DNA of 60,270 nucleotides from a virus. Taxonomy: Duplodnaviria; Caudoviricetes. Below the pieces are notes generated by a model. It was not told where the DNA came from. It searched no databases and saw only the letters and a list, made by a program, of their open reading frames with translations. The translations under genes were made by a program, and so were the position numbers. Positions 15,330-38,669 of this stretch are shown here, in pieces. The first letter of the stretch is position 1. Each line of letters starts with the position of its first letter. The DNA lies in IMG/VR virus record IMGVR_UViG_3300037473_000305, positions 1-60,270 of that record. The stretch is one strand, 5' to 3'.

Positions 15330-15486
15330 TGATTAACTGATAAGTTTGTGTAAGTAACATCCGCCTGTCCTTTTCCGCATATCGGCTGAATACACCCTGT
15401 CTTATGTTCTGTTCAATGAATTCAGCCTGAGTAAACCGGCTCCAATGCAGCACACTGAAGCCGGTATTATCGACTATAACGGTCAT
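15298..15486 (-). CDS. Hypothetical protein, 62 aa
   Basis: TAATG-coupled to the major tail gene. Confidence 0.55.
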   Translation of the reverse strand: MTVIVDNTGFSVLHWSRFTQAEFIEQNIRQGVFSRYAEKDRRMLLTQTYQLIIDTTSTWTKT

Positions 15487-16451
15487 TAGCTGGATGCGGA
15501 TTCAACGATGAACGGCACACCATCCTGATCTTCAAAACCTTCCATGTTGATGGGAGGTGCTTTTAAGACAGACGGGATCGCCAGCTGTATTGTCATCTCT
15601 GCACCGTCGAACTCCTGCTGATAATGCAGCGCATTGACAGTGACATTGAATGCTTCATCGGCCGTATTATCGGCTACGGTAGTTACGCTGGATGCATCAC
15701 CATTGGACTTGTACGCTTTCCATGCCGAGGTCTGCAGCAGATTCGATTTGTACGCGTCGTACAGATTCACGTCACTGATCTTTGTCCGCACTTGTACAGT
15801 AGCCACATTGTTGGTCTGATCGATGATGGTTAATACCACTTCCTGTAAACCGACCACATCAAACAGATTGAAGTCCAGGGCCTCTCTCACCTTGATGAAG
15901 CCGAGGTTCCCTTTATTCAGATAAACCGGATTGATGATGAACCGCAGTGTGTAAGTTGCTGCATCTGCGCCAGTAGCCGGACGCCACGGGTTTACATAAA
16001 AGATATCCACAGGAATACCTCTCAGTATACCACCAGACGTGTATCCATATAGTACGCCATTGCTGTCATAGAACATGAAGTACTTATTGCTGCCGGCGTT
16101 CTTACCGATTTCCTGATGCAACTGTACGCCCCCCTTCAGATATCTGAAAGAAAAGTCGTAGAAACCATCCCGGGTGATGTATTTGGCACCGTAGTCCGTG
16201 GTGGTGATGCTTACATCTTCCGTATTGTCGGTAACGTTGATGAAATTATGATACGGAAATATGCGCGTGCCGATAGCGGCATGAACTTTCGTAATGAAAA
16301 AATCCTGCAGGTCGGCAAGATCGCTCTCCGAAATCTCAAAGTTGGAAGGCACCTGGATGGCGCCGACAAACTTATCGGGTTCAATGAAGCAATCTCCAAA
16401 ACCTGTATTGCCGTAGCTGGTCGCGCAAAGTGGTTTGTTAATTGTTGCCAT
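15486..16451 (-). CDS. Major tail (tube) protein (putative)
   Basis: 321 aa; N-terminal C...GNTG..C; position between head completion genes and tape measure. Confidence 0.65.
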   Translation of the reverse strand: MATINKPLCATSYGNTGFGDCFIEPDKFVGAIQVPSNFEISESDLADLQDFFITKVHAAIGTRIFPYHNFINVTDNTEDVSITTTDYGAKYITRDGFYDFSFRYLKGGVQLHQEIGKNAGSNKYFMFYDSNGVLYGYTSGGILRGIPVDIFYVNPWRPATGADAATYTLRFIINPVYLNKGNLGFIKVREALDFNLFDVVGLQEVVLTIIDQTNNVATVQVRTKISDVNLYDAYKSNLLQTSAWKAYKSNGDASSVTTVADNTADEAFNVTVNALHYQQEFDGAEMTIQLAIPSVLKAPPINMEGFEDQDGVPFIVESASS

Positions 16452-16995: not shown

Positions 16996-17819
16996 ATACC
17001 GAACTCATTTATGCGCCTGAAATATCTGCGCATGCACCAAACATCCAGATCTGCCCACTCCGTGTAATCATCTTTCTTCGCATCGAGATAATCACTGAGC
17101 TCACAGATTTGTCTGGACATCTGATTCCATGCGTTTACCATTTTCAAGGCGGGGCTTGTCATAACCGCATTTTCCGTTGTTGATTTGACCTCTCCCATGG
17201 CCGCGGTCTGGGTATGCTGATTTTTTGTATGCCAGTAGTAGACATAATTGGCAATCGGGCTTTGCTTATTAGTTCCTGTGCTAGTGTTTAACGCCAGGGT
17301 AGCCGACTTGTAGATGTATATATCATTGATTGCAAAAACACCCGATGTGAGTGTTAATGTGCTACCCACAATACTATATTCCGAAGAAAGCAATTGCCCG
17401 ACCCCTCGCTGTTCGATGGTAAAGTCTTTGCCTACCAGTGCGGCGGGGATAGTCACGTTATTCGTGCCAGCGACAGGATCGTATGCGCCACCACCACCGA
17501 CTTGTATCGATATGGTATTGACAGCATCCAACGCGTTCAAAACAGAAGGCGGCTGAGACACCAGACCACTCCAAAACCTAACCTGGTTATTTTGATCGGT
17601 ATACTCAACGCCTTCTATTAAGTCGGTCCATTTCTGTGCTACGGGAACCACTTCCAAACCTGCTTTGAGGGCCTTATGAAGCGAGTACCCCAGCGCTTTG
17701 CGGAGAAACTCCTCTTCATATTTCTCTATAAACAGGTCCAGCAGGCTGCCGACAGCAGCTTGTGCAGTATTGGGAATATTCAGTTCACCAACGAAATATG
17801 TACGGTCAATTAAAGCCAT
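16992..17819 (-). CDS. Head-tail connector/adaptor protein with inserted beta domain
   Basis: Directly after capsid gene; LID.TYF.GEL.IPN start and SPIANYVYY motif. Confidence 0.65.
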   Translation of the reverse strand: MALIDRTYFVGELNIPNTAQAAVGSLLDLFIEKYEEEFLRKALGYSLHKALKAGLEVVPVAQKWTDLIEGVEYTDQNNQVRFWSGLVSQPPSVLNALDAVNTISIQVGGGGAYDPVAGTNNVTIPAALVGKDFTIEQRGVGQLLSSEYSIVGSTLTLTSGVFAINDIYIYKSATLALNTSTGTNKQSPIANYVYYWHTKNQHTQTAAMGEVKSTTENAVMTSPALKMVNAWNQMSRQICELSDYLDAKKDDYTEWADLDVWCMRRYFRRINEFGI

Positions 17820-19081
17820 TAGCTACCAGAATCTATTACTGAGCGAATGCGTGTCAGCTGGTCATATACCAGGGCAGGTTTGCGGCTTGTGCTGATATAG
17901 TCGTGGTAACGCACCTCAGCAATTACGCTGAACTGGTTACGCTGGAAGTCGTCATTGTTGTAACCAACTTTCAGTACCATATCCTTGTACACATCCACAT
18001 TGTACTGGTTGACGTCACCTACAAGGGCATACCCTTCTGCCACTTTGTTGCCTTCGCGCATGATTGACTGCAAGCGCTGAAGGAAAGGTGGAATGAGGTA
18101 CAAGCGGTCGGTAGCAGACTTCTGCATCTCAACCAAGGCACCTGTAACCGGATTGATACCGATGAAATTGGCGTTGAAATTGTTCTTACCGACCTGCGCG
18201 ATCATCGCACGGAGCGCATCGTAAAAGTTTGAATCATCCACCTGCCCATTGAGGCCGGTCATGGTATAAGCCTGTGCGGCAGCAATTATGGCTGTATACA
18301 CATCGTCATCCCATTTGCGGGCAACGGTGTCAGTCAAAAGACGCTTTACGATCGTAGTGAAACCGGGCAAGTCCTGGTCGAACTCCTCGGTGATCACTGA
18401 CATGGCTGCAGTCTTTTTTGCCTGTGACATTTCCACTTTGAAGCGGGTATTCCACAGCGGCTTGGGTGCGCCTTCCTGTACCTGTGCGGCAGCACCTTCA
18501 ACGGACGTTTCATTCACCCATGGAAGCAGGGCAAAATTGGTATTGCCACGGTTGACATAGTTGATGATGAAATTCGGGTTGTACATGATACCGAAGAAAT
18601 TCGTAGCATTTACAGGCCCGGCAACCGGTAAGAATGGACTGTTCGGTGCCGGGGTCATTGGCTGTATGCTATTGCCAATGGAGGTGCTACCGGATGTCTT
18701 GAGCGTAATATTGCTCAGCGGAATTTCGATCACACCCGAGCCAGCTTTTTGAATGGCTTTGATTTGTTTGATGGTTTCCTCATCAGAGAGCAAATCTTCC
18801 AACGCCTTCGGCTGTGAAGGATTATTACCTTCTTTCAGGGCATTGATGATGTTTCCCTGTTCTTTCAGGGCCTCTTCAACCTTTGAAAGCGATTCGGTAA
18901 CCTTCGCCAGTTCTTCAGCCTTGAAGGCGTCAAAATCTTTTGAGGTCATCAGGCCTTTTCTTACATCTTCGATCTTGTCGTTGATGCTTTTTTCAGAAGC
19001 CGCGAACTGTTCTTTTATTTTCGTCGCCGCCTCTTTGCCAACTTTCTCGGTTAGCTCGGTGAATTGTTGTTCTGTTAACAT
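17819..19081 (-). CDS. Major capsid protein (HK97-like, N-terminal coiled-coil scaffold domain)
   Basis: About 110-aa coiled coil then AAQVQEGAPKP and DFQRNQFSVIAEVR motifs. Confidence 0.88.
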   Translation of the reverse strand: MLTEQQFTELTEKVGKEAATKIKEQFAASEKSINDKIEDVRKGLMTSKDFDAFKAEELAKVTESLSKVEEALKEQGNIINALKEGNNPSQPKALEDLLSDEETIKQIKAIQKAGSGVIEIPLSNITLKTSGSTSIGNSIQPMTPAPNSPFLPVAGPVNATNFFGIMYNPNFIINYVNRGNTNFALLPWVNETSVEGAAAQVQEGAPKPLWNTRFKVEMSQAKKTAAMSVITEEFDQDLPGFTTIVKRLLTDTVARKWDDDVYTAIIAAAQAYTMTGLNGQVDDSNFYDALRAMIAQVGKNNFNANFIGINPVTGALVEMQKSATDRLYLIPPFLQRLQSIMREGNKVAEGYALVGDVNQYNVDVYKDMVLKVGYNNDDFQRNQFSVIAEVRYHDYISTSRKPALVYDQLTRIRSVIDSGS

Positions 19082-19955: not shown

Positions 19956-20021
19956 TTCTTTATAATTTTTTTGTCGGCCACCTGCTTGTCTTTATCGAAC
20001 ATTTTTGCTTCAAGTATTTTT

Positions 20022-21455
20022 TTATCCACCTTGATTTTCGGTGGTTGCTTCTTGTCCTTGTCCTTCATTGGTATTTTGATTTTGTGTTTCCTGATTTAAT
20101 TTCTTCCACTCACTGTAATAGATATCACCTCCATCCGGCAGCGGATCTTCGCCGTTTAATTCAAGCCATCTATTGCGAGTGATCAGATCATTCTGCCATT
20201 CGATCAGCAACGCATCATTACGAGACTTGCGTGCCTGCGCCGCCTGCACCTGATCTTCCTGTAGGACTTGCACATGCGTGAAATCTTTATCGATGATGAT
20301 GTTGAATCGTTGTGTGTCGAACAGTTGGTTCCATTGCTCGTACATGCTTTCCGCTTCAGGAATGGTAGCGTCCTGGTAAAGCAACTTTTTGCCCTCATTC
20401 AGATTTGAGAAAGTGGTTCCCTTTGCTGAGGACATTAATTGATACGGATAGTTGTAGGCGTCGCAAATAGCCATGGTATTGGCCTCAATTTCCTCAAATA
20501 GCATAAGGTCCCTGGTCGGAACGCCCATGCTTTGCCATTTCAATGAAGCGGAAGTAATGATGAATTGCCATTGGTGGTTTTTTAAACCGTACCGGCGGAA
20601 GTCCTGTTGTAACTGTTCCTTCGATTCAGGCGTCATTGCAATGGGTCCATAAGTACCCGTTCCCGGGTCCTGACTGAGAATACCTAATGCGCCCCGATAA
20701 TTAATGAGCACATTACGTGACTCATAGGCACCGATGATGTTATTGATCGGCATAGAGAGAGCAGCAATACGGGATTCTGGTAGAACTAACGTGCAGAAGG
20801 AAGGTGTGAAATCTTTCATGATGAAGATTTCAGAAGGCTTCAGCTTAGTTTCAATTCCTTTGTATGTAAGGGTAATGTCGCTGATCATCCCCGATATATC
20901 GGACTGATAAAACAGTTTTTTTGTTTCCTCTATGCTGAGCATCGTTGGAGGGATATTCCAAAGACTGGATGCATCAATATTATCTTTGAAACCCGCCGGC
21001 TTTATGGGCAGAACTATATTAAATCCGAATAACTGTTGATAGATATACCCTTGCGCTTCGAATTGCTTCCAGGATTGTAATGGGTTCGGTTTATTGATCA
21101 GCGCTTTGATCTTGCTTGCTTCAGCACCTGTCGCTTCTTTACCTTTCGCTTTCCCTTGCGTATTCAGCACCCACGTCTTACCATTGATGTACGCCTGTGC
21201 TTTTCTATTGATGATGGCATTAACTGGCGGGCATCTTTCATAAGCTCGTTGTGAGTCCGGGTGACCGGAATAGGTGAAGTAAAAAAAAGACTTTCCATGC
21301 TGCTCGAAAAACCAGTTGCCGTTTGTGTCAATAGATGGGCGGTAATCGATGGGGGAGACATAGAACGGATCGGGTGGCGTCAACGATTTTAAAGCGGTTC
21401 CAAAATCGCCTCGAAGAAGTTCCTTGCCAGCTGTTAATAATCGTTGTGTATTCAT
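20022..21455 (-). CDS. Portal protein (HK97-like)
   Basis: LINKPNPLQSW..F, TFSN..E..K.LYQ..IP, ITRN motifs; start taken at MNTQRLL. Confidence 0.9.
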   Translation of the reverse strand: MNTQRLLTAGKELLRGDFGTALKSLTPPDPFYVSPIDYRPSIDTNGNWFFEQHGKSFFYFTYSGHPDSQRAYERCPPVNAIINRKAQAYINGKTWVLNTQGKAKGKEATGAEASKIKALINKPNPLQSWKQFEAQGYIYQQLFGFNIVLPIKPAGFKDNIDASSLWNIPPTMLSIEETKKLFYQSDISGMISDITLTYKGIETKLKPSEIFIMKDFTPSFCTLVLPESRIAALSMPINNIIGAYESRNVLINYRGALGILSQDPGTGTYGPIAMTPESKEQLQQDFRRYGLKNHQWQFIITSASLKWQSMGVPTRDLMLFEEIEANTMAICDAYNYPYQLMSSAKGTTFSNLNEGKKLLYQDATIPEAESMYEQWNQLFDTQRFNIIIDKDFTHVQVLQEDQVQAAQARKSRNDALLIEWQNDLITRNRWLELNGEDPLPDGGDIYYSEWKKLNQETQNQNTNEGQGQEATTENQGG

Positions 21456-21461
21456 ATAAAG

Positions 21462-21508
21462 AAAAAAGGGCCACAACCACCGAAATGGTCATGGCCCTCT
21501 TGGGGCGC
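21462..21508 (-). promoter_or_regulatory. Hairpin plus U-tract on the portal leader, overlapped by a tandem G(A/C)GNNCC motif
   Basis: Minus strand GCGCCCC-AA-GAGGGCCatgaccatttcggtggttgtggcccTTTTTTctttatATG. Confidence 0.55.
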
Positions 21509-21535
21509 AATATTTTTTTTGTCAGCGTTGGCCCG

Positions 21536-21739
21536 CTATGCTCTAAGTCTTTCTGCTCGTGGTTGCTCAACTATTGGGGGCGCTTGCTGTGTATGTGTTA
21601 TCTCTGCTGTTGTATAAGTCGCACAATGCTTGCACTTGAACCGGGCTTTGCCGTATTCAATCTCACCAATTATCTTGTTACATTTGGAATTACTACAACG
21701 AATTGTCCTCACAGTTACGAAATTATAATTTATTTTCAA
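21536..21739 (-). CDS. Com-like (phage Mu) zinc-finger regulator
   Basis: IRC.N.KCNK.IG......FKCKHC four-Cys ribbon in a 67-aa protein. Confidence 0.7.
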   Translation of the reverse strand: MKINYNFVTVRTIRCSNSKCNKIIGEIEYGKARFKCKHCATYTTAEITHTQQAPPIVEQPRAERLRA

Positions 21740-22355
21740 TTCTTCCTGAATTTTCTATATTTTGAGAATTTGGCTCCATATGACCCCTGCTTCGTCGGTC
21801 GCAGGTTACTAAGGGCAACTCAATGAAATTGGTGGGAACTTGCGAGGTGACTTCCTTGATATACCGGTAATCCCCTGCTTTCTGCCCATCCAAACCTGAC
21901 AGCATCTTGTATTTTGAGTGCAGCACCATGCAGGGCAGGCCGATCTTTCCTTCGACGATCACTTTCTTCCGGATGTAATTTTCAGCTGGCTTAGGAACAC
22001 TATTACGCAGGAATTGACAAATTATAGCGCCGGGCGTCTGCAGATGGACGGCCAGTTCTTCCAGAATGGTCGGTCTCGTCAGTGTATCGTCATCGTCAAG
22101 GAACATAAACCAGCCCTCTGTGACCAGCGTTTTCAGGTCATTACTATAGCAGTCGTAAAAATAAGGCAGACTGTTATCGGCATAAACAAAGAGTTTGGTA
22201 AGGTCTTGCGGAATATAGTCAAGGGCTGATGCGCGGTCATACCCGACGATGATGCGATAATGTTGATAAGTCTGTTGATGGATTGATTGCAGGCAGCGGG
22301 CAAAGAGTTGCGGGCGGTTACTTGTGCGAATGAGGATATTGATCAGCGCGTTCAT
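21723..22355 (-). CDS. Glycosyltransferase family 2-like
   Basis: ILIRTSNRP..F..CL.SI..QTY, IIVGYD, FMFLDDDD. Confidence 0.88.
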   Translation of the reverse strand: MNALINILIRTSNRPQLFARCLQSIHQQTYQHYRIIVGYDRASALDYIPQDLTKLFVYADNSLPYFYDCYSNDLKTLVTEGWFMFLDDDDTLTRPTILEELAVHLQTPGAIICQFLRNSVPKPAENYIRKKVIVEGKIGLPCMVLHSKYKMLSGLDGQKAGDYRYIKEVTSQVPTNFIELPLVTCDRRSRGHMEPNSQNIENSGRIENKL

Positions 22356-22894
22356 GGCTTGGTCACAACTAAGGTCTTCCAATCAGGATGCCCTTCTTGT
22401 TTGTACGCCCTGTGCGGCATCCTCAGTACTAAGTCCTGTGTTTCCTGGCTGGGCATCCAGACCGAAGGTTGACACCAGTTATCAAGGATAAGGCGACCGC
22501 CGCGGTTTAGGTGCCTTACCGCTTCGATCACGCAAGCATCCCTTAGTTCAACCGGCTCGTTGTCCACCACAATAATATCGAAGAAGCCGCTGTGAAAATG
22601 GCTGATAATATCGGGTGAGTAGTCGCCACCCATGTGGATGGCGACTGTCGCGTTGTTAGACAGGTTTTCTCTTACGGTATTCGCCCATTCAAGATTATTT
22701 TCGATGGCGTAGACCGCGCGACACTTCGCCGCCCACCACAACGTACTTGCGCCGCACCCGTATTCAAATACTACCTTGTCTTTCAAATCCCATGTCACCA
22801 GATCATCGAGAAACGATTTGGTATACCACGGTAACACAAGGCCAGTGTCCGGGCATCGGTGTTGCCATTCGTTTATTGAGTTGAGATCAATCAT
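22352..22894 (-). CDS. Class I SAM-dependent methyltransferase
   Basis: VFEYGCGASTLWW motif I, FDIIVVD, L..GG.LILDN. Confidence 0.85.
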   Translation of the reverse strand: MIDLNSINEWQHRCPDTGLVLPWYTKSFLDDLVTWDLKDKVVFEYGCGASTLWWAAKCRAVYAIENNLEWANTVRENLSNNATVAIHMGGDYSPDIISHFHSGFFDIIVVDNEPVELRDACVIEAVRHLNRGGRLILDNWCQPSVWMPSQETQDLVLRMPHRAYKQEGHPDWKTLVVTKP

Positions 22895-22996
22895 TTCAAA
22901 AAGATTGATATTATTCCTGCTATACCTAAACCATAACAGATACCCGCAATGAACCACATGATTACTTCTTTACGAGTATATTGCTCCATATTTGCT

Positions 22997-23584
22997 TTAA
23001 TCATCATCAAATTTATAAGGCCCCAAAGATAACCCCCGGAACTGGTTAACGTCAATCTTATTGCTGACGAGTGTTGCACCTGCCCCGCCGCCGTTCTTAT
23101 TGTAGTTGAGACGGTAGGTGAATTTGGCGAATACAGGTTCAAAACCATAGTTACCGGCGCCTCCAATCTCGGTGTCATGTACACAAATGATCTGAGCTTT
23201 GTCCCTCATGCGTTCAATGGCTATCTTGCGATGTTCACCTGGGGCGTGGTCACAAAAGAATAGACCGCATTCTCGGTAAACGCTGGGTAACTCCCAAGAC
23301 GATGTATAGTTTGACCCGGTCTTTGTCGCCCATTCCTTATTGGATTCCCAGCTTTCGAACGGCCTTTCATTGGCACTACAGTACTTTCGTAAGTAAGGTG
23401 TACTACCTTCGCCCGAACCAAACTCAATAACTAGGTCTTTTGTGAGAGCCAGTCCAAGCAGAAGCATGGGTAAATGATTATTCCAGTTGCCGGTGACGCC
23501 TTGCAAGAAACCAAACTCATCATTCATATTAATACGAGTTATCTCTATGGCAAAGGGACTCGGTTCGCTATTTATATCCCGCAT
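22997..23584 (-). CDS. SAM-dependent methyltransferase-like protein
   Basis: VIEFGSGEGST motif I, FFCDHAP, ICVHDTE. Confidence 0.7.
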   Translation of the reverse strand: MRDINSEPSPFAIEITRINMNDEFGFLQGVTGNWNNHLPMLLLGLALTKDLVIEFGSGEGSTPYLRKYCSANERPFESWESNKEWATKTGSNYTSSWELPSVYRECGLFFCDHAPGEHRKIAIERMRDKAQIICVHDTEIGGAGNYGFEPVFAKFTYRLNYNKNGGGAGATLVSNKIDVNQFRGLSLGPYKFDDD

Positions 23585-24306
23585 AACGCCTCCTTAAATT
23601 TAAGAATGAACGAATAATCTTCACCCGGCCACAGCTTTTCAAACACTTCAATCTGAGCGTCCCAGTCGCCTCGGGGCATGTGGACGTCAATAATGTCACC
23701 AGGTATGTGCTTAAAATCAAATCTGTCCCATCTACCTGTAGGCAGCCCGTGTTTGTTTTGATTACCACGGTCAACGAAGGTGATGCGTTCCATGCCATAC
23801 TCATGCGCGCGTTGGGTGAGCAGTTGCTGGTCAACGCTCCAGTAATCTTCCCATTTGTCAGAATATGACTTGTCAGGAATTGTAAACTCGCCCATCAGTT
23901 CCTGCCATTTAGCTGATGTAGCCTTGACATAACAGATTGGAATTTCTGACCTGCCAGTTAAATCATAACCGTAAGAAACTATCTGCCCGTCTTCCACAGG
24001 ATGAGTAAAAATATCTTTTGCTATTATCATGTCCGCGTCTGCCGTGATCAATATGTCGGAATCTTCACAACCTTTAACGAACAATCTTTTGAGTTGCGCA
24101 AATGTCGAATCCCTTACGTCCTTTACAGATGGGTTACCGAAAATATGTGCGGGACAATATTCCATCAGCTTGAATTGAATTTCTTCCGGCACATTGATGG
24201 CATATACTATCGGCCAGTACCCAATCTTTCGCCAGCTATGACATGTGAGAGGGAGTAGCTCAAAGTAGGATGAATTATTATCTGTGCTGAGAATGGCGTA
24301 TTTCAT
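23572..24306 (-). CDS. GT-A-fold glycosyltransferase-like protein
   Basis: ILITADADM DxD motif; later DQQLL and C-terminal His (DVH). Confidence 0.65.
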   Translation of the reverse strand: MKYAILSTDNNSSYFELLPLTCHSWRKIGYWPIVYAINVPEEIQFKLMEYCPAHIFGNPSVKDVRDSTFAQLKRLFVKGCEDSDILITADADMIIAKDIFTHPVEDGQIVSYGYDLTGRSEIPICYVKATSAKWQELMGEFTIPDKSYSDKWEDYWSVDQQLLTQRAHEYGMERITFVDRGNQNKHGLPTGRWDRFDFKHIPGDIIDVHMPRGDWDAQIEVFEKLWPGEDYSFILKFKEALCGI

Positions 24307-24893
24307 AATAAATCTTTTCGGATGAATAAAGAATTCCAGTAATTCAGCCCCGCCCCATGCGCCTCCGTCAACTCATGCTGCACCGGCTCGTACCACCTCA
24401 ATAAGTTCTCCATGCACTTATCGTAATACTGATCGTGTAAGGCGCGGTGGCAGTGGAGGTGAAATTCAACGCTGATTTGTTTGGGAATGGATTGAAAGTT
24501 GGGGTCGGATAAAAGAAAGTACTCTGTACCCTCTACATCTAACTTCAGGATGTCGATTGTTTTACCTTGTTGCTCAACCAAGTCATTGTACAAGTCGTTA
24601 ATGCCAATGCCTGTGATGTGCTTACCAGTGTTACTGATAAATTTAGCCTGTTGATCTTTTGTATCAATATAAAGGTATTCGCCATACTTAGGCATTAGGG
24701 CGAACCTCATAAACGTAATGCCATCGGGATTCTCAGGATGCATATCTTCCAAATCCATTGCTATCACTGGACATCCCAAATTACGTATTGCCTCTGCAAA
24801 CTGGAAGCCTCTGCAGCCCGCATCGATGCAGATGCCGCCGGTAAGGAGGTCGAGGTCAACAGAATGCTCAGCGATACATTGTATGTTCATCAC
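24303..24893 (-). CDS. FkbM-family methyltransferase
   Basis: CIDAGC, IDILKLDVEGTEY, QISVEFH. Confidence 0.9.
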   Translation of the reverse strand: MMNIQCIAEHSVDLDLLTGGICIDAGCRGFQFAEAIRNLGCPVIAMDLEDMHPENPDGITFMRFALMPKYGEYLYIDTKDQQAKFISNTGKHITGIGINDLYNDLVEQQGKTIDILKLDVEGTEYFLLSDPNFQSIPKQISVEFHLHCHRALHDQYYDKCMENLLRWYEPVQHELTEAHGAGLNYWNSLFIRKDLL

Positions 24894-25516
24894 TTAAAGT
24901 GTTGCTTTAAAATTATACTGTCAGGCCCACTATTATATCTCATGTCCTCGCACGTGACAGGCCCATACCCATGCAAATTCATCGATAGCGACAACAAAGC
25001 TTCATCATGTCGGTGACCCCCTAATTTCTCACCAGCGGCGCCGAATAGCCCTTGGCGCTCAGATCGCGCCCATGTCTCGAATATCTTTTCACAGTCTGGA
25101 TGATTAAAGTCCCAAACATATACGCTTCCGCCGACCAGGTGCAAGTGGTCGGGACAGTCGCTATACCCGAACCAGTCCAGCGCTTTGTCCGATACAAGAC
25201 CTTTCAACTTGTTATCATCCTTTGCCGCCAGTACCGGATGATTCAGCGTGAACCAGTAATCAACGGGGTGTTGTAGGACGCAGGCGGTATCAAGCCAGAT
25301 GATGCGTTTGTAGCCCCAGTTTAATGCCCTCCTTACTGCATGTACTTTAAAACCGTATAAGCTCTCTTTATGTGTCCTACTATTAGGCGGGTAACCATTG
25401 CAATGCATAATATGCTGCGCTGGCGTATAAAACTGCATTAGCGAGTTATGCAATCGCTTTTGCTGCTCTATATACTGTTCGCCAAATGCAACAGAAAGGA
25501 AAATAAAGTCGGTCAT
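24890..25516 (-). CDS. GT-A-fold glycosyltransferase-like protein
   Basis: YGFKVHAV...GYKRIIWLDT, HRHDEALLS. Confidence 0.7.
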   Translation of the reverse strand: MTDFIFLSVAFGEQYIEQQKRLHNSLMQFYTPAQHIMHCNGYPPNSRTHKESLYGFKVHAVRRALNWGYKRIIWLDTACVLQHPVDYWFTLNHPVLAAKDDNKLKGLVSDKALDWFGYSDCPDHLHLVGGSVYVWDFNHPDCEKIFETWARSERQGLFGAAGEKLGGHRHDEALLSLSMNLHGYGPVTCEDMRYNSGPDSIILKQHFK

Positions 25517-26364
25517 AACTGCCAGTAAAAAACTGATGGATATTGTTTCTCGATACTTTCCCAATACTCATTGTCCTTCCCATGCTGCTGTAAGAACTTT
25601 ACTACTGCGTCCACCTGCATGCCGGCAGCGCCGATGTGAAAGCCATAACCATTCGTCTCTTTCAGCTCATCAGGCACCCCAATCTCCTTCAAGTCGATGT
25701 CATGAATGAAGTTGTGGCAATCACCGCGGAACGTCTGCGGATGGCCAAGGACGAAGTGTTCTGTGATGCTATCGGCTACCTTTGGCAGGACATACCGGTT
25801 CAAGAAATCCTGGTCGGCACCTTTGCGGGAGAAGTCAATGCCCTGAGCAAGCGAGAGCAGTTCGTCGAATGATTGTACACCCATGCGGTTACGGAACGGG
25901 CCCGACATGAATGAACACATACCGCCCATAAGGGTTATGTTGTGGCTGACGCTGTCCGTTATTGCGTGTGCCATCTTTGAACCCCTTTCCCAATAGGCGA
26001 CCGCCTGGCGTTCGCGGTAAGATAGCAAGCTGTCTGCATCTCGACAGAGGACGCGCTCGTACTTGTTGTTCTTACCCACTATTTTGAAGATGGGCAGCAA
26101 CCTCCACAACATCATTTTACATAGTTGGTCTTGAGGCAAGACCTGCAGGTCAATCCTGAAGTCCTGATTGAGCTTCCATAGATACCCTTGGTAAGGCGAC
26201 CTGTAGCTTGATTCATCAACCCCCAAGTGAATAATCCAGTCAGGGTACAGTAGTTGGGCGACCCTGATATTGATGTGTAGACCCCTGATGTAACTGCGGA
26301 ATTCGTAGCAATTCTCGTACTGCTGGTTGTAACCGAAGAGAGAATATGCGATTGCGTCAGCCAT
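25513..26364 (-). CDS. GT-A-fold glycosyltransferase-like protein
   Basis: IAYSLFG, YPDW, MLWRLLP, RDADS, LMGGM, DQDFL. Confidence 0.7.
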   Translation of the reverse strand: MADAIAYSLFGYNQQYENCYEFRSYIRGLHINIRVAQLLYPDWIIHLGVDESSYRSPYQGYLWKLNQDFRIDLQVLPQDQLCKMMLWRLLPIFKIVGKNNKYERVLCRDADSLLSYRERQAVAYWERGSKMAHAITDSVSHNITLMGGMCSFMSGPFRNRMGVQSFDELLSLAQGIDFSRKGADQDFLNRYVLPKVADSITEHFVLGHPQTFRGDCHNFIHDIDLKEIGVPDELKETNGYGFHIGAAGMQVDAVVKFLQQHGKDNEYWESIEKQYPSVFYWQL

Positions 26365-26626
26365 TTGGGAAAGGATTTTCGGTGAATACTGATACTGGCG
26401 GCATGCCTGTGCCACTTATCGACAACCACACAACGCCCGTTCGTTGAATTTCTTCAAGATCTTCTTTTGATAGTTTCCAGCATGATATGATCGTGGGACA
26501 GGTAGTGCCGTTTTCGTCAATGGGCGCGTCGCCTTTCCATACTGAAAGATCGCTGCACTGTTCATCCGTCCAACCTTCCGGCTTTTTAAAAACAAAGTTG
26601 TGTTGTGGGAATGTTACTGGTAGCAT
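26357..26626 (-). CDS. Hypothetical protein, 89 aa
   Basis: ISCWKLS.EDLEEI.RTG.VWL...PPV; tightly packed in operon. Confidence 0.7.
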   Translation of the reverse strand: MLPVTFPQHNFVFKKPEGWTDEQCSDLSVWKGDAPIDENGTTCPTIISCWKLSKEDLEEIQRTGVVWLSISGTGMPPVSVFTENPFPNG

Positions 26627-26627
26627 A

Positions 26628-27197
26628 TTAATATCGTTTGTCAGAAATAAAAAGGTAATTGTATATCACTTCATCAATCCAATGCTCCGTCTTCAATACA
26701 CCGGTATGCTGCAAGTCCATAGCCCACTTACTATCTTCACTGAATCGCCATTCGGGAAATACTGCCTTTCGCGCGTGCTCAGTCTTCAGGCAATTGATGT
26801 GCATGATCGGGCGATAAAAAACACCATCGTCACCGGTGAACAGGGTGTCATACTTGATAGAGTGGACGAACTTTGTAGGGTTTTGGCCGTCTTTAGTATA
26901 GATGCCAGTGAGCGAACAACAGTCAACGCCTTTACTTATCCCCTCCATTAGGTGCTTAATATAGTTCGGCCCTGGCATATCGTCATCATCAAAGAAGGCC
27001 ATGTATTCGGTATCTACTTCGGCCATCATCTTATTGCGCTTGGTGCCTATATCGATGGTGGTGTCGTCGTTAGTGTATATTCTCACAAAGGCGCCATTGT
27101 CAAGACATTGATACGCAAGCGCCACCTCTAATCTTTCCAGAAAATGTTTTCGGGCTGGCAATGTTGGAATTAGTATTGTTAAAGTTCCTTTTATCAT
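26628..27197 (-). CDS. Glycosyltransferase family 2-like
   Basis: LTILIPT, IGTKRN, YMAFFDDDD, SED..W. Confidence 0.9.
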   Translation of the reverse strand: MIKGTLTILIPTLPARKHFLERLEVALAYQCLDNGAFVRIYTNDDTTIDIGTKRNKMMAEVDTEYMAFFDDDDMPGPNYIKHLMEGISKGVDCCSLTGIYTKDGQNPTKFVHSIKYDTLFTGDDGVFYRPIMHINCLKTEHARKAVFPEWRFSEDSKWAMDLQHTGVLKTEHWIDEVIYNYLFISDKRY

Positions 27198-27847
27198 AAG
27201 TCAAACCCTCTCGCTTTTCTCAGTTCAAAAATCTCTTGGTCCTTGTTGTACGTATCATTGCGCCAGTATAGCTCGTCTTTCACAGCTTTCCGATTGTTGG
27301 TGTAATGCAGGTGCTCAATACTCACATCAGGCACATGAATATAGCAACCTCGGCGCTTAGCTACTTCGGTGGCTTCGTCATCACAAAACATGGAATAGTA
27401 ATCACCGTGGTACACATAACCATCCCGCTGATAGTATCGCTTACCAATAATACTTACCGTGCAAACCCGGTCTTTGGCATAATCATCATAGGCGTGAAGA
27501 AAGCCGTCCAGGTTCTCCGGCATGTGCTTGCGAATAATGTCGTCGAAGCCGAACGTCCTGAATCGCATATCATCACTTGCATTTACCAGGATCGCCCAGT
27601 CGGGAACAGTATCGAGATCGCGATTGATCGCATGGATCTTCGATGTACTTGTGCCCCATTTAATGTATACATTGCGATAGCCGGCTATCCGCTTTTTCAC
27701 CTCCTCGTTATTCATAGTCGCATCATCGTCATCCAGCTTAGCCACAATAAAGTAGTTCCTTGACGTGCACATCTGAACAATGTTGTTGATCGTCTCAAAA
27801 AACTTTTCAGGTCTTGACCTACTGGCCAGATTGAAGAGGATTGTCAT
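27194..27847 (-). CDS. Glycosyltransferase (GT-A/GT2-like)
   Basis: SRSRPEKF, KIHAINR, NASDDM, FCDDE, IEHLH. Confidence 0.8.
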   Translation of the reverse strand: MTILFNLASRSRPEKFFETINNIVQMCTSRNYFIVAKLDDDDATMNNEEVKKRIAGYRNVYIKWGTSTSKIHAINRDLDTVPDWAILVNASDDMRFRTFGFDDIIRKHMPENLDGFLHAYDDYAKDRVCTVSIIGKRYYQRDGYVYHGDYYSMFCDDEATEVAKRRGCYIHVPDVSIEHLHYTNNRKAVKDELYWRNDTYNKDQEIFELRKARGFDL

Positions 27848-28022
27848 CTTGTTGATTGAATCGGTCTACAAATTCTTTAATGCCTTCTGTGGTAGCAGTA
27901 GCTGTGATCGGCTTTATTGGCTTCGGCGCAGGCCCCATATCTTCGATATCCAGATTCTTTTTGTCCTGCTTACTGGCGCCTTCTTTGAGTGGTTCGATGC
28001 GGTGTTTATTTTTCTTGCTCAT
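27819..28022 (-). CDS. Small hydrophilic hypothetical protein
   Basis: TAATG-coupled in operon. Confidence 0.55.
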   Translation of the reverse strand: MSKKNKHRIEPLKEGASKQDKKNLDIEDMGPAPKPIKPITATATTEGIKEFVDRFNQQDDNPLQSGQ

Positions 28023-28270
28023 TACTTTTTATTTATGATCGCGTTGAGTTGACTTGATATCCACCCGAGTATCAGTCCACCACATACCATCTGCCAGACC
28101 GTTTGAAGCAGGGGTATAAGCAGCAGCCCGAAGCACACAGAGTAGCATATCCAACGAATGAAGGACAGTGGAATGTGAACCGGCGCTTCGTCTGTTGTCA
28201 CTCCATTACTTGCAGGCATATTAACATCCTTGCTGGTATTGATGTCCGGAAACTTTCTTGGCTCTGTCAT
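28022..28270 (-). CDS. Small two-TM membrane protein
   Basis: Two C-terminal hydrophobic helices; ATGA coupling. Confidence 0.6.
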   Translation of the reverse strand: MTEPRKFPDINTSKDVNMPASNGVTTDEAPVHIPLSFIRWICYSVCFGLLLIPLLQTVWQMVCGGLILGWISSQLNAIINKK

Positions 28271-28971
28271 GCCTCATATTTACTTTTGTTACTGTATAAA
28301 TCCTGTAACACCTCCTTCATCCCGTTGGGCACCCAGCACCGATCGCCGATGCTGAACCATTTGCGGCCTTTTATCTGCTCAATAATTTCTTCATATGTTA
28401 GCGGCATCCTTATCTTACTGTCTTCCATAAACTCGCCATCAATGCCGTTGATGTAACAGTACAGGGTTTTGATGCAGTAGCCGTACCATTTGGTCCAGTC
28501 AGCGAGAGCAACAGAGCGCATGAATTTCTCTTTATTGAAAACTATGGGACAGTGGGTGTCGTAGTTATTAATCGCATAGCCGCCAAGCAGGGATATGGTA
28601 TTGCGTTTCGTTTCACCGTATTGACCCTCACCTGGTACCATTGGCCCGCAGTGATAATACGGGAAGTCAATAGCCTCGTAGTTTTCAAGCAGGAAATGAT
28701 CATCATGCACCATCAAAAAATCTTTGCTGACCCTTCGATCTTTACATGCTGTCAATACCTTATTCATGATGTTAAAGTCACGAAAGCGGTTACGGGCATC
28801 TTCTTCGTATGGTATATGGATACATCCGGCAATCCAGTCCGGACAATAGCCGATGATGAAGATCTTGCCGATGCCTTTCAAATGTTTCTCGATCGATCTT
28901 ATGCACATGCGCAGCTCGAGATTCTTTTGAGTTGATCGGTTATTGAGAGGTATGACTATATCTACGGCCAT
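28267..28971 (-). CDS. Glycosyl/sugar-phosphotransferase-like protein (GT-A; N-terminus Stealth-like)
   Basis: DIVIP, ELR..IRSIEKH, IFIIG..PDW, FLMVHDDHF, H.P. Confidence 0.65.
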   Translation of the reverse strand: MAVDIVIPLNNRSTQKNLELRMCIRSIEKHLKGIGKIFIIGYCPDWIAGCIHIPYEEDARNRFRDFNIMNKVLTACKDRRVSKDFLMVHDDHFLLENYEAIDFPYYHCGPMVPGEGQYGETKRNTISLLGGYAINNYDTHCPIVFNKEKFMRSVALADWTKWYGYCIKTLYCYINGIDGEFMEDSKIRMPLTYEEIIEQIKGRKWFSIGDRCWVPNGMKEVLQDLYSNKSKYEA

Positions 28972-29063
28972 AAAAAATGCGCCTTCAACTCGGGAGTATC
29001 CAGCGCAGATTAACTTACTAACGCAAGTCATTTTCGATCCCGATTTCGCAAATGACCTTTTGG

Positions 29064-29093
29064 CTAAGTTACTATATTTTCTGAACTTTCAAA
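29064..29093 (-). promoter_or_regulatory. Possible Bacteroidota-type promoter for the glycosylation cassette
   Basis: TTTG-18 nt-TAACTTAG (one mismatch to TAnnTTTG) in the terL/GT intergenic gap. Confidence 0.45.
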
Positions 29094-29106
29094 TTAAAAT
29101 GAAATA

Positions 29107-30528
29107 TTATCTGCCTTTAAAATAGCTACTATACCTAGCGTACCTGCAGGCATCTAATAAGTGATTAAATTCATCGACTGGAACATTGGTTATAACCTTA
29201 CCGTAACATACCCACTGATAGTTGTTCAGCTCCATTTTTAGGTTCCGCGAATCTGCGGTATAATGGCAGGTATATTCTTTAAGTTTTGTGATGCCAGCAT
29301 CAATACTCCCCTCGCCTTTCAGTGCCGGGAATGCAGCAACGCCTAATGTCCTTAGTTCGGCTATCTTCCCCGGCATGTGATCGCAGTACACTATTTGGCC
29401 TTCCCTATAACCATTATCTACCAGCCGTTTCTTTATCTCTGCCATTGGGACACCAGGGTCGTATAAACACTCTTTGAAGTAGGCATTGTCACCTACAACA
29501 CCGGACTTCACAAGAGCATTTGTGCCGGTCGTTTTACCAAAGTCCAAACCCCATGTTATCGTCTCGATGTTATCCGGCCACGTTGGTATTTCGATCCAGT
29601 TAGTGAAGATGAGAATGTCTGTATTGGGCTTCGGGTCTTGTTGATACAAACTATTGTAACTAACTTGGCTAAGCTTCTTTTGGCTGAGTACCTTTTCCAA
29701 GCTGTGTTTCGACGCCCACAATACTTCACCCGGCTGCCGCGGGTCATAGTCATGGACATCCTCCGTTCTGATTGCCGGAAATTTGATTACTTCCCATTCG
29801 CCCGGTTCTTCCATTAGCAGGCGCCCGCAAAGATCGTTCTCGTCCCACCTGGTATTCATGATCAATTGCTGGCTATCATTATGTAAGCGGGTTCTAAATA
29901 CATCTACATACCAGTTCCAGGCACTTTCGCTGACAACCATGGACTTTGCCTCTTCGCGGTCTTTGTACAAATCATCAATGATCCCAATATCCACTGGTTC
30001 GGATGTAAGAGATCCCCCACGACCTACGGTCTTCAATGACCCTTTCTTTTTAACTACTTCGAACTTATGTTCCGTACGGGAATAATTGTCGTAATTAGTT
30101 GCAAATATTTTCGAGTAGTTAAGTTTGGTATCTGGGAATACCTGGGCGTAGGCTTCGTTATCAATGTTGCGCTGAATAGCTCTATTAAAGCCGCTGGCAA
30201 TAGTATCGGCATAACTCGCAATAGCAATCTTTAAATCCGGATTCCTACCCAATAGATAAGGAGGGAAAAGCCTTGTTGCGAGTTCAGATTTACCGTGTTG
30301 CGGTGGTAGTAAAATCATCAGCTTCTTTATCTCACCTGCAGCAAACTGGTTTAGCTTCATGCATATGTACGCATGAAACCATTGCATTTCATAGTCTGGC
30401 TTTAGATATTTTACGAAGGGATTAAAATCAATACGGGATTGGCGTATAAGAAGTTCCTGTGCGGCGTGTATTGCCTCAATCAGCGCCTTCCTTTCCAGTG
30501 TTAGGGGATAGCTTCGCTGATAACTCAC
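29107..30528 (-). CDS. terL: Terminase large subunit
   Basis: PPQHGKS Walker A, GIIDD Walker B, GLDFG and NHLLDACRYA nuclease motifs. Confidence 0.95.
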   Translation of the reverse strand: MSYQRSYPLTLERKALIEAIHAAQELLIRQSRIDFNPFVKYLKPDYEMQWFHAYICMKLNQFAAGEIKKLMILLPPQHGKSELATRLFPPYLLGRNPDLKIAIASYADTIASGFNRAIQRNIDNEAYAQVFPDTKLNYSKIFATNYDNYSRTEHKFEVVKKKGSLKTVGRGGSLTSEPVDIGIIDDLYKDREEAKSMVVSESAWNWYVDVFRTRLHNDSQQLIMNTRWDENDLCGRLLMEEPGEWEVIKFPAIRTEDVHDYDPRQPGEVLWASKHSLEKVLSQKKLSQVSYNSLYQQDPKPNTDILIFTNWIEIPTWPDNIETITWGLDFGKTTGTNALVKSGVVGDNAYFKECLYDPGVPMAEIKKRLVDNGYREGQIVYCDHMPGKIAELRTLGVAAFPALKGEGSIDAGITKLKEYTCHYTADSRNLKMELNNYQWVCYGKVITNVPVDEFNHLLDACRYARYSSYFKGR

Positions 30529-30934
30529 ACAGCATTAATTTAAGTTCATCATCTGTTTTAGTGGATAGTGGCTGGTCGGGTACGCCGGCAAACTCGGTAC
30601 GTTCAACATATCCTCTCTTCTTCCCTTTTGTTTTAAGGTAAAAGATAATAGCTGTATCACTGGGGGGAACCGTATATACCTTTGGTTTACCTTCATCATC
30701 AGTTCCATTAGATACTGTAATGCCCTCAATCTTCTCAAATAGCTTGCTTTCTGCAAAATCAATTGCTTCTTCTCCAATGTCATCGACGCATTGCTTATAT
30801 TCGGGATCTTCCTCCAGCCAGCGGTAGTGCGTTTGCCGGGAAATATCAACTACTTCACACGCGGTTTTCACCACCCCAAGCGATTTTCGAAGCGCCTCAA
30901 TCATTCGCTTTTTATTGATGTCACTATTTGTCAT
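30476..30934 (-). CDS. terS: Terminase small subunit
   Basis: HTH (ACEVVDISRQTHYRW), AIIFYLKTKGKKRGY; directly upstream of terL. Confidence 0.8.
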   Translation of the reverse strand: MTNSDINKKRMIEALRKSLGVVKTACEVVDISRQTHYRWLEEDPEYKQCVDDIGEEAIDFAESKLFEKIEGITVSNGTDDEGKPKVYTVPPSDTAIIFYLKTKGKKRGYVERTEFAGVPDQPLSTKTDDELKLMLCELSAKLSPNTGKEGAD

Positions 30935-30943
30935 GAGTTATGC

Positions 30944-30980
30944 CAAAGTTACAATTTTTCAGTAATTACTGAAAATTCAA
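30944..30980 (-). promoter_or_regulatory. Promoter of packaging operon with 20-bp palindrome
   Basis: TAACTTTG -7 box at 30951..30944; TTG upstream; TTTTCAGTAATTACTGAAAA at 30956..30975. Confidence 0.65.
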
Positions 30981-31177
30981 TCAATTTTCACGTGAAACTC
31001 TCTTCACCTTCTCCTTACACCACATCCATTCCGCCTTCAACGTCTTCATATTGAGCACCCACCTGGTGCCAACAGTAATATTGACCCTCGAGGGTCCTAA
31101 GGTGATTGTCCTATACACGATCCGGCTATTTCTTTTCCTGAAATACTCCATCACTCCCAAAGCTCCCAGCGCTACTG

Positions 31178-37426: not shown

Positions 37427-38614
37427 TCATGGCGCTACCTCCCCATAATTTGACGTCGGCCCACCCATCCGTATATTATCCAGGTACAGCACCAGCACAT
37501 CATACGGTGAATACGATGCCCATTGCGGTGTCCATCCCCATTTGTAGATGCCGAACTTGGGATAAGGCCGGTAGAAGTCATTGTAGCAATTCGGGGCGTT
37601 CTGCCGGTCGATGACCTTAATGCCATTGCGCCACATTTCCACTATCCCGGTATTGTCATATGCGAACCTGATATGCATCACCCAGTCATCCCAGACGCTC
37701 GGTGTGAACTTGCCCAGGTTGTAGCTGATCTGGCCGTCTTTGGTCGTGTTGGTATTGCAGCTGTCGGCGTCCCATAAGATCACTGATCGAAAGCTATCGG
37801 CCTCGACCCGCAGGTCAAGTACCGGACTACGTGAATTATCGCATGCATCGTCGGTTCCATGCAACTGAAAGAATATATGGGCATTGCCATCACCGGTTAC
37901 GTTGGTGGGTGAATAGGTAGAAAACCCGAACCACATCTCTGAGTATGGACAGGGGCCTGAGTAGACCTCCGACCGCACGTTCGGCCAGGTGGAACTATCG
38001 GATTTGGCGAGCTCGAACCGCGCTGCGCTTTTACCGCTTCTTACATGACTGTTATCGATCTGCAGCGATCCGGGCCTTGCGGTCTGTTTTATCCAGCCGC
38101 AGGTGCTATCGGCTCTGCAGGCTTTCCATGGCACGCATCCGACCAGGGACTGCTCCCAGTCGCTTTCGAAATCACAAATACGGTACAGACCCGTCGGTGC
38201 GATCTCCAGCCAGTTCAGGCTGTATTTAGCGTACCTTGACTGCAGGCGTAGTTTTCTACTGCCGGCCTTTAGAAACAGCCGTGTTGAGGCTGTATAATAC
38301 GTCTGGTCACTACCTGTAGGTTCGAACCGCATCTTGCCCAGAATGTTCCATGCGCTATCTGCAATCCAGATATCATTGCCGCTGCCGGCGATACGAAGGG
38401 ACAATTTGTAAATTCCGTCTGACGGGAGTGTGACCTGGTATTCGGAGAAATCCATATCTTTGACAAATCCGAGGCAATTGCCCCCTTCACTACAGGGGAG
38501 TACAACAGCACCAAACTGCTGGGTGAAGCTCTCTGCTTCAATATGAATTGTTTGTCCTTTAGTTAGTAATGAGATCATTAGTAACACTGCTGTTAATCTG
38601 CCAGTAATTAACAT
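37427..38614 (-). CDS. Secreted CBM6-like plus polysaccharide-lyase-like (beta-jelly-roll) protein
   Basis: Signal peptide ending KG-Q; IEAESF...G.YKLSLR.A...LNWLEI carbohydrate-binding module; RSE, QLH, W.DWVMHI, YPKFGIYK lyase motifs. Confidence 0.8.
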   Translation of the reverse strand: MLITGRLTAVLLMISLLTKGQTIHIEAESFTQQFGAVVLPCSEGGNCLGFVKDMDFSEYQVTLPSDGIYKLSLRIAGSGNDIWIADSAWNILGKMRFEPTGSDQTYYTASTRLFLKAGSRKLRLQSRYAKYSLNWLEIAPTGLYRICDFESDWEQSLVGCVPWKACRADSTCGWIKQTARPGSLQIDNSHVRSGKSAARFELAKSDSSTWPNVRSEVYSGPCPYSEMWFGFSTYSPTNVTGDGNAHIFFQLHGTDDACDNSRSPVLDLRVEADSFRSVILWDADSCNTNTTKDGQISYNLGKFTPSVWDDWVMHIRFAYDNTGIVEMWRNGIKVIDRQNAPNCYNDFYRPYPKFGIYKWGWTPQWASYSPYDVLVLYLDNIRMGGPTSNYGEVAP

Positions 38615-38669
38615 TGTTTGATTTTTAAATTGTGAAAGAATAGCTTTCACATGTTCTGTTGGTTGGGCC

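Follow-up and report, generated by a model that had tools for sequence, protein, structure and literature searches.

The phage genome in IMG/VR record IMGVR_UViG_3300037473_000305 (Duplodnaviria; Caudoviricetes), analysed here over its full length of 60,270 bp (the window), carries a cassette of putative glycan-building and glycan-methylating genes between its terminase and portal genes. The cassette consists of 14 tightly coupled open reading frames (ORFs) on the minus strand at positions 21536–28971, lying between the large terminase gene terL (29107–30528) and the portal gene (20022–21476), with ten of the products read as enzymes. An initial annotation, made from the sequence alone, had described the locus as a phage-encoded, multi-enzyme system for glycan assembly and methylation within the head-morphogenesis block, and this reading is supported by family assignments for six of the ten enzymes and by a gene place and order kept in all six relatives that span the interval. 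With moderate confidence, we propose that the cassette attaches a methylated glycan to proteins of the virion, drawing on S-adenosylmethionine (SAM) and on nucleotide sugars of the host. The virion is suggested as the target by gene position, by the lack of machinery for export, by inheritance of the cassette together with portal and capsid genes where terL is exchanged, and by analogy with known systems. The virus record is reported as linear, with a CheckV completeness of 100 and 0 tRNA genes.

The gene order on the minus strand runs from a small helix-turn-helix (HTH) protein at the position of the small terminase gene terS (30476–30934), through terL, the 14 cassette ORFs and the portal gene, to a 284-residue ORF and the HK97-type major capsid protein (MCP; 17819–19081). 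Both flanks of the cassette are confirmed by Pfam, with terL matching Terminase_6N (E = 1.3e-8) and Terminase_3C (4.4e-4), and the portal protein matching PF04860 (1.8e-16), so the splitting of terL from the portal gene stands as first described. The true start of the portal gene is probably the ATG at 21455. All cassette ORFs lie at the minus-strand positions given in the initial annotation, whose end coordinate, 28971, is the orthologue-supported ATG of the first cassette gene; orthologues likewise set the real starts of four further ORFs at 26364, 25516, 22894, and 22355. With these starts, 11 of the 14 cassette-internal junctions are overlaps of 1–29 nucleotides or a 1-nucleotide gap, bearing out the claim of translational coupling, and sizeable gaps occur only after terL (135 nucleotides), before g22352 (102 nucleotides), and before the portal ORF (59 nucleotides). 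The idea of the cassette as a compositional island was dropped, with its GC content of 0.43–0.49 falling inside the range of the window.

Relatives were taken from a portal-based scan of viral contigs, which yielded 15 loci with portal identities of 59–80%, six of them (L003, L004, L006, L008, L009, and L011) complete from terL to portal. The cassette occupies the same place, in the same order, in all six complete relatives at 41–82% amino-acid identity, confirming on every contig that spans the interval the terL–cassette–portal arrangement whose conservation was to be checked. A core comprising g28267, s28022, g27194, g26628, g25513, g23572, g22997, g21723, and s21536 is present in 6/6, whilst three optional units, the g24890 and g24303 pair, g22352, and s26357, each occur in two of the six. 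The extra ORFs that interrupt the cassette in relatives encode homing endonucleases of the HNH/NUMOD4, GIY-YIG/NUMOD3, and HNH-AP2 types (L006:3851-4399, L008:6340-7125, and L002:307-792). Nine of the ten enzymes are also encoded, in a compact and colinear arrangement, at L016, on a contig of a Bacteroidota-labelled metagenome-assembled genome (MAG) that starts inside s28022. In the more distant relatives L013 and L017 (portal identities of 63% and 51%), the slot is kept and the set of glycosyltransferases differs. L017, a 58.5-kb contig of a Bacteroidota-labelled MAG, carries a Stealth-type gene, a weakly Nucleotid_trans-like ORF, a 571-residue GT11+GT7C fusion, and a small ORF with CxxC pairs, and L013 carries the end of a Stealth-type gene, an ORF with a transmembrane (TM) segment, a weakly Methyltransf_24-like ORF, and a 513-residue GT11+GT7C fusion.

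The terminase of four of the six complete relatives (L004, L006, L008, and L009) is of a different, 397-residue type, alignable to that of the window over the C-terminal 160 residues only, at 33% identity. Where terL has been swapped in this way, the cassette, portal, and MCP are still 41–80% identical, and the comparison indicates module swapping at the boundary between terL and the cassette. With the terminase exchanged while cassette, portal, and capsid stay close, the cassette is inherited with the head genes, and not with the terminase. The nearest cultured relative by portal, Polaribacter phage Freya_1 (32% identity), has a single 62-residue ORF in the interval between terL and portal, which makes the cassette an acquisition of the present lineage. 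A megablast search of positions 20000–31000 against the phage collection returned no match.

Profile searches lend support to six of the ten cassette enzymes: g26628, g21723, g27194, g28267, g24303, and g22352. The first cassette gene, g28267 (28267–28971, minus strand; 234 residues), had been taken for a classical glycosyltransferase, a view that we revise. Its family profile (A8, 7 sequences) matches the CR2 region of the GlcNAc-1-phosphotransferase GNPTAB among PDB sequences, with an E value of 8.5e-6 to 9bgg_A and further matches to 7s05_B (5.2e-5), 7s6n_A (6.3e-5), and 7dxi_A (8.2e-4), four distinct chains in total. The alignment covers ~95 of 235 profile positions, ending at position 110, and includes an ELRYxLRSIE-type stretch. 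Pfam Stealth_CR2 is reached at 1e-3 by g28267 and at 2e-7 by its L017 orthologue, both under the cut-off of 39.4 bits, and no Pfam row at E ≤ 0.1 was obtained for Stealth CR1, CR3, or CR4 in g28267. The protein also matches phrog_7999 (4.6e-22), and a copy of the gene occurs in every version of the cassette seen, including all six complete relatives. Stealth enzymes transfer sugar-1-phosphate, and the match of the family profile to the CR2 region leads us to read g28267 as Stealth-type, that is, as a hexose-1-phosphate transferase-like enzyme.

The cassette contains two GT2-family glycosyltransferases. In g26628 (26628–27197, minus strand), Pfam PF00535 is matched at 8.5e-7 (29.5 bits against a cut-off of 23.3) and phrog_14775, annotated as a glycosyltransferase, at 3.7e-33, with F68 and D70–D73 invariant among six sequences as an acidic motif after a hydrophobic strand. 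The last cassette enzyme, g21723 (21723–22355, minus strand), matches PF00535 at 2.4e-6 (28.1 bits against 23.3) in its N-terminal part only, at profile positions 2–33, and contains the motif FLDDDD, read by eye. The top NCBIfam rows of g21723 are PglI (6.6e-6) and WcaA (7.8e-5), both far under their cut-offs. A third putative glycosyltransferase, g27194 (27194–27847, minus strand), matches phrog_14945, annotated "glycosyltransferase", at 1.5e-12, has DDxD and SDD motifs invariant across seven sequences, and gave no Pfam, NCBIfam, or PDB sequence match. Its homologues fall into 215 database clusters at E ≤ 0.001, with the 120 clusters listed being 62–76% identical and none carrying a Pfam domain. 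Of the seven GT-A proteins originally counted, these three and the Stealth-type enzyme have profile support; the count was overstated, one member being Stealth-type and three, described below, being unverified. The description of the enzymes as dissimilar held up: among 36 profile pairs compared with hhalign (nine profiles), only two had E < 0.01, neither of them a pair of glycosyltransferases of the window.

The three other proteins, g25513, g23572, and g24890, are plausible glycosyltransferases. Both g25513 (25513–26364, minus strand) and g23572 (23572–24306, minus strand) have a conserved DxD motif, with R87, D108, D110, and G147 of g25513 invariant in a 61-sequence alignment, and D92 of g23572 invariant and D90 at least 90% conserved across 30 divergent sequences. 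Neither has a match in Pfam, PHROG, NCBIfam, or PDB sequences. The g25513 family is large, with 1947 representative clusters (50% identity) at E ≤ 1e-3, and 0/61 sampled members match any Pfam family. One gene of this family, of 436 residues, lies in CAKLQH020000005.1 (165662–178192) amid the chromosomal-looking genes recN, gspE/F, and coaE; that record is labelled "Acinetobacter phage MD-2021a" and looks like bacterial DNA, not a phage genome. Models of g25513 and g23572 built with AF2 from shallow alignments are poor (pLDDT of 41.5 and 51.3 respectively), and the Foldseek and VIA rows are accordingly taken as weak leads only: the non-significant fold rows of g23572 are mostly nucleotide-diphospho-sugar transferase folds, and those of g25513 are mixed and uninformative. 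The optional g24890 (24890–25516, minus strand) is a candidate GT-A-like transferase on the basis of its Atlas look-alikes, with feature scores of 0.95 to both TOD1/MUCI70 glycosyltransferase-like and DUF1647 groups, and, in structure, TM-scores of 0.81 against a DUF1647 cluster and of 0.71 against another in which 28% carry Nucleotid_trans. It has no Pfam, PHROG, or PDB match, and a single invariant residue, D76 in an LDTAC stretch over four sequences, gives it a weaker DxD feature than those of g25513 and g23572.

Searches of the PDB with seven cassette family profiles (A1, A2, A3, A5, A9, A10, and A13) gave nothing significant, and hhalign of the three DxD families was not significant against either a two-sequence GT8 profile (E. 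coli WaaO and WaaJ) or the GT2 of the cassette itself. A homologue search with g23572 and g27194 recovered only close relatives, with no Pfam domains or informative names; together with a search using the fused ORF described below, it brought up dozens of relatives of roughly 57–65 kb. An HMM search of genomes with PF03407, PF01501, and PF13578 gave no candidates and was too insensitive, missing the PF13578 of g22352, so its blanks are not used.

Gene fusions tie two of these families to each other and to the methyltransferase-like g22997. In L011, g23572 and g22997 form a single ORF of 446 residues, and among 120 clusters listed in a search with this ORF, 30 hold fused full-length forms (436–483 residues, at least 99% coverage). 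In its C-terminal half, g23572 resembles the C-terminal extension of long g25513-family members (hhalign E 4.5e-9, probability 96%). Of the best 150 representatives of the g25513 family, 24 have 500 residues or more, and an HMM of g23572 matched 23 of these, near full length and with E values from 5e-10 to 9e-30, and 0/126 of the shorter ones. Since their counterparts are joined in single polypeptides elsewhere, g25513, g23572, and g22997 are best read as one functional unit.

Three SAM methyltransferases had been proposed, of which two reach Pfam cut-offs. The FkbM-family enzyme g24303 (24303–24893, minus strand), an optional gene that travels with g24890, matches PF05050 at 4.7e-5 (24.0 bits against a cut-off of 22.7) over residues 106–146 only, with TIGR01444 at 7.9e-4 (19.9 bits) falling under its cut-off of 37.7. 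The optional g22352 (22352–22894, minus strand) is assigned to the class I SAM methyltransferases by Methyltransf_11 (21.4 bits against 21.2), with Methyltransf_24 (4.4e-5, 24.8 bits) just under its cut-off of 26.3. The third, g22997 (22997–23584, minus strand), has no Pfam match and is a probable class I SAM methyltransferase-like protein through a weak relationship to the g22352 family (hhalign E 3.2e-4, probability 39%) that spans a GxGxG-type motif and the next acidic strand. Residues G56, G58, and G60 of this protein are invariant among nine sequences, and an Atlas row of 0.94 places it with a cluster containing 11% Methyltransf_24 carriers.

The remaining cassette ORFs are small. Upstream in the cassette, s28022 (28022–28270, minus strand; 82 residues) encodes a hydrophobic, TM-like protein, the sole cassette product with 19-residue Kyte-Doolittle windows of at least 1.6 inside orthologue-supported limits. 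It is kept in all six complete relatives as well as in L013 and L016, and has no family match. No TM segment was found in any of the enzymes in the same Kyte-Doolittle scan, in agreement with the initial annotation; a hydrophobic N-terminus of the 24890 ORF was rejected as an anchor, since it belongs to an extension from a TTG start for which orthologues give no support. The charged 67-residue s27819 (27819–28022, minus strand) has no family match and a tblastn match in 0/6 relatives, and a 68-residue ORF stands at its position in L004, L006, L008, and L009. The accessory s26357 (26357–26626, minus strand; 89 residues) matches phrog_25433, of unknown function, at 1.3e-12. Finally, s21536 (21536–21739, minus strand) encodes a 67-residue protein with two CxxC pairs, zinc-ribbon-like by eye, that is kept in all six complete relatives and L017, has no significant family match, and shows no similarity to the 62-residue ORF at the same place in Freya_1. 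In each of the 11 close loci having upstream sequence, g21723 is followed directly by this small CxxC ORF and then by the portal gene.

A terminator-like hairpin with a T-run (21464–21501, minus strand), detected in a terminator scan, lies between the cassette and the likely portal ATG at 21455. Its GC-rich, 17-pair stem is kept in 9/9 aligned sequences, with compensatory change at two pairs, and it could be a terminator or attenuator that separates a terminase–cassette unit from the head genes, or it could act in translation. The motif TAnnTTTG, which we take to be the Bacteroides -7 promoter motif, occurs 12 times on the coding strand of the window. Two copies 16 nucleotides apart (23015–23038, minus strand) lie just before the 102-nucleotide gap upstream of g22352, and one (30944–30951, minus strand) lies just upstream of the terS-like ORF.

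Taken as a system acting on the virion, the cassette would be a cytoplasmic assembly line, transcribed late with the packaging and head genes and producing a methylated oligosaccharide that may contain phosphodiesters. The Stealth-type g28267 would add a sugar-1-phosphate, as a priming step or a branch, and it is this step that raises the possibility of a phosphodiester link. The chain would then be extended by the two GT2 enzymes, the PHROG-type glycosyltransferase, and the three DxD proteins, with g25513, g23572, and g22997 working as one unit, and the FkbM and class I methyltransferases would cap sugar hydroxyls. Lineage-specific glycan variants may arise from the optional modules and from the alternative GT11/GT7C set. 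As acceptor sites, the Ser-rich C-termini of the MCP and of a putative major tail protein (15486–16451, assigned by position only) are suggestive, as a lead and not as evidence: the MCP ends in SGS in 11/11 complete close relatives and the tail protein in ESASS in 8/8, with the residues just before varying in both; in the window these C-termini are encoded at 17819–17830 and 15486–15500.

Elsewhere in the window, Pfam scans covered 40 other ORFs, each of at least 110 residues. As first annotated, no nucleoside-diphosphate-sugar synthesis gene, flippase, or base-hydroxymethylase was found in these ORFs, which include one C5 cytosine DNA methylase, and no polymerase, transporter, or initiating phosphoglycosyl transferase was found in them either. 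The earlier description of the phage as temperate fits the presence of a tyrosine integrase with Arm-DNA-bind_5 and SAM_5 domains, a combination typical of Bacteroidota. A polysaccharide lyase with a CBM6 domain (37427–38716, minus strand; PF14099, 5.1e-33) lies in the early/replication region, not among the tail genes. Two further proteins identified by Pfam are an 848-residue beta-helix and PKD protein (56594–59140, minus strand), which may be a depolymerase or tail fibre, and, next after it, a GH19-like lysin (59140–59727, minus strand). Further Pfam finds are DnaB, YqaJ/RecT, NinB, and NinG, together with an HNH/NUMOD homing endonuclease in the replication module (39929–40477). The best tblastn matches of terL are Bacteroidota phages, at ~43% identity over the N-terminal two thirds, those of the portal are Polaribacter phages, and the three genome-collection matches are all in MAGs labelled Bacteroidota or Sphingobacterium. 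With start codons that lack Shine-Dalgarno sequences by eye, these matches and labels point to a host among the Bacteroidota.

Several observations weigh against the virion as the target. Three of the seven supposed glycosyltransferases (g25513, g23572, and g24890) lack a significant family or fold match. What the analysis shows is the gene set with its family assignments, coupling, conservation, modularity, and fusions; we infer that capsid and/or tail proteins are the acceptor, in which order the steps run, and what the sugar chemistry is. Structural constraints could also explain why the Ser-rich C-termini are conserved. The conserved hairpin sets the cassette apart from the portal gene, so co-transcription with the head genes is not assured. 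The best NCBIfam rows of the GT2 enzymes are of the WcaA/PglI kind, peripheral enzymes that act on lipid-linked glycan substrates and have no TM helices, so the solubility of the cassette enzymes does not exclude a target in the host envelope. Furthermore, the conserved small TM protein s28022 adjoins the Stealth-type gene, and the phage, a temperate one, has a gene for a CBM6-bearing polysaccharide lyase and so deals with surface polysaccharides.

The main rival reading, which we consider unlikely though better placed than the others, draws on these same features and has the cassette act on the host envelope. In this case the enzymes, as peripheral membrane proteins, would remodel or build a lipid-linked repeat unit on undecaprenyl pyrophosphate (Und-PP), exported by the flippase and polymerase of the host, and the outcome would be an altered lipopolysaccharide or capsule, either in lysogens (seroconversion and superinfection exclusion) or late in infection (receptor masking against loss of progeny on debris). 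Such a role is favoured by the best NCBIfam rows of the GT2 genes, all Und-PP-glycan enzymes (PglI, WcaA, TuaG, and EpsD) and far under their cut-offs, by the TM protein inside the cassette, by the pairing of integrase and polysaccharide lyase in one phage, and by the hairpin dividing the cassette from the head genes; bacterial Stealth proteins, moreover, make capsule polymers. The two TAnnTTTG motifs before the internal 102-nucleotide gap would also fit, however the motif is absent from the gap between terL and the cassette in the window and in four of five relatives. The cassette lies in the late packaging and head block, coupled downstream of terL and away from the integrase, and it keeps its linkage to the portal and MCP genes in relatives with an exchanged terL. 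Additionally, the ORFs scanned yielded no gene of the GtrA/GtrC type and none for Wzx, Wzy, or an ABC transporter, and the enzymes have no TM segment.

Rather improbable is another cytoplasmic target, be it host or phage non-structural proteins modified for takeover or anti-defence, or a free or lipid-bound small glycoconjugate. Three enzymes from unannotated families leave room for such a role, as does the occurrence of the very large g25513 family outside phage-sized contigs, CAKLQH020000005.1 being an example. However, ten chain-building and methylating enzymes would exceed the needs of a signalling-type protein modification, and strict linkage to head genes over 41–82% divergence is unexpected for takeover genes, which are usually found in early regions. 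Least probable is hypermodification of the phage DNA with methylated sugars before packaging as a means of evading restriction: seven transferases and three methyltransferases far exceed known DNA glycan lengths, the 40 other ORFs hold no dCMP/dUMP hydroxymethylase, thymidylate-synthase homologue, DNA-base kinase, or similar gene by Pfam and only a C5 cytosine methylase as a DNA-modifying gene, and no enzyme match in Pfam, PHROGs, or NCBIfam is annotated as a DNA glycosyltransferase, set against the position of the cassette genes beside the terminase and the existence of DNA-glycosylating phage glycosyltransferases, as related in a citing passage of PMC12619734.

Among systems already described, seroconverting gtrABC-type and O-antigen modules share with the present cassette the occurrence of glycosyltransferase genes in a temperate phage genome. 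The gtrABC-type modules consist of a membrane flippase and a polytopic glycosyltransferase, located by the attachment site and under their own promoter, whereas the cassette has no TM enzymes, lies in a late operon, and encodes ten enzymes. No such flippase or polytopic glycosyltransferase family was found by Pfam in the scanned ORFs, and no enzyme has a TM-like window. As in the Stealth family, which includes GNPTAB and the hexose-1-phosphate transferases of bacterial capsules, the g28267 profile aligns to GNPTAB CR2; in contrast to that family, g28267 has only 234 residues, CR1, CR3, and CR4 were not detected in it, and its Pfam CR2 match is below threshold.

Virion glycosylation in mycobacteriophages was reportedly described by Freeman et al. 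in 2023, and the closest known arrangement is that of the Cluster O mycobacteriophages. Corndog gp35–gp38 comprise an O-methyltransferase, two glycosyltransferases, and a GlcNAc-transferase between the genes for portal and protease, for which the authors proposed a role in capsid modification (PMC4351075, in excerpt). According to a citing passage in PMC12619734, capsid and tail-tube subunits of mycobacteriophages reportedly bear glycans at their C-termini. The likeness lies in the placement of glycosyltransferase and O-methyltransferase genes among head-morphogenesis genes of a siphovirus-type genome; the slot is that between terL and portal here and between portal and protease in Corndog, with ten enzymes here compared with four. 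The present cassette further differs in its Bacteroidota-type host, compared with Actinomycetota for Cluster O, and in having optional modules, an enzyme of Stealth type, and members of three families, DxD or methyltransferase-like, that lack annotation. The sole sequence link found to actinobacteriophages is the Stealth-type protein, with 24% identity to hypothetical proteins, Fionnbharth gp6 among them, that are encoded upstream of the terminase in 30 mycobacteriophage records; Corndog is not among the 25 records listed of 32 matching the Stealth-type gene.

A pathway of this size had been called more typical of giant viruses, and the comparison is apt in one respect. In the chlorovirus PBCV-1, A064R is a protein of two glycosyltransferase domains and a methyltransferase domain that builds the capsid glycan, with the methyltransferase O-methylating a terminal sugar (PMC7826918, in excerpt). 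Similarly, glycosyltransferase-like and methyltransferase-like genes are fused in relatives of the cassette, in the form of a DxD protein joined to a methyltransferase-like protein (in the 30 of 120 listed clusters above), and 23 distant representatives hold a pair of DxD domains in one polypeptide. The likeness is one of architecture, not of sequence comparison, between a eukaryotic giant virus and a phage whose window carries the three parts as separate genes.

In a literature search, for which subscription papers and supplements lay outside reach, no account was found of this cassette, of a glycosyltransferase cassette between terL and portal, or of a Stealth protein in virion glycosylation. 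To our knowledge, demonstrations of phage-encoded virion glycosylation are so far limited to a few actinobacteriophages, with two to four enzymes. To the proposal of a virion glycan, the present analysis adds the Stealth-type step, the fixed core with optional modules, the three-part unit, and the linkage to head genes. A bolder version, which we regard as doubtful, sees a modular virion "glyco-coat" locus that is widespread in temperate phages of Bacteroidota type and diversifies like an O-antigen locus. Here the Stealth-type enzyme would prime the glycan by placing sugar-1-phosphate directly onto the Ser-rich C-termini of capsid and tail proteins, the g25513–g23572–g22997 unit would extend and methyl-cap it, with the first two domains representing new glycosyltransferase families, and the swappable modules would yield serotype-like virion variants. 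We know of no protein phosphoglycosylation in phages.

The interest of the locus lies in its scale and modularity, in its Stealth-type enzyme, and in three unannotated families tied together by fusions, which define which enzymes belong together for assay. If the virion is indeed the target, an abundant uncultured lineage infecting another phylum would have a modular ten-enzyme methylating cassette as a fixed part of its head module, and three unannotated protein families, one with ~1,900 representative clusters, would gain testable functions. The cassette versions of related phages would then provide natural glycan variants for testing the purpose of virion glycans, and self-glycosylation would be a broader phage strategy, serving for example in shielding, stability, or adhesion to polysaccharide matrices.

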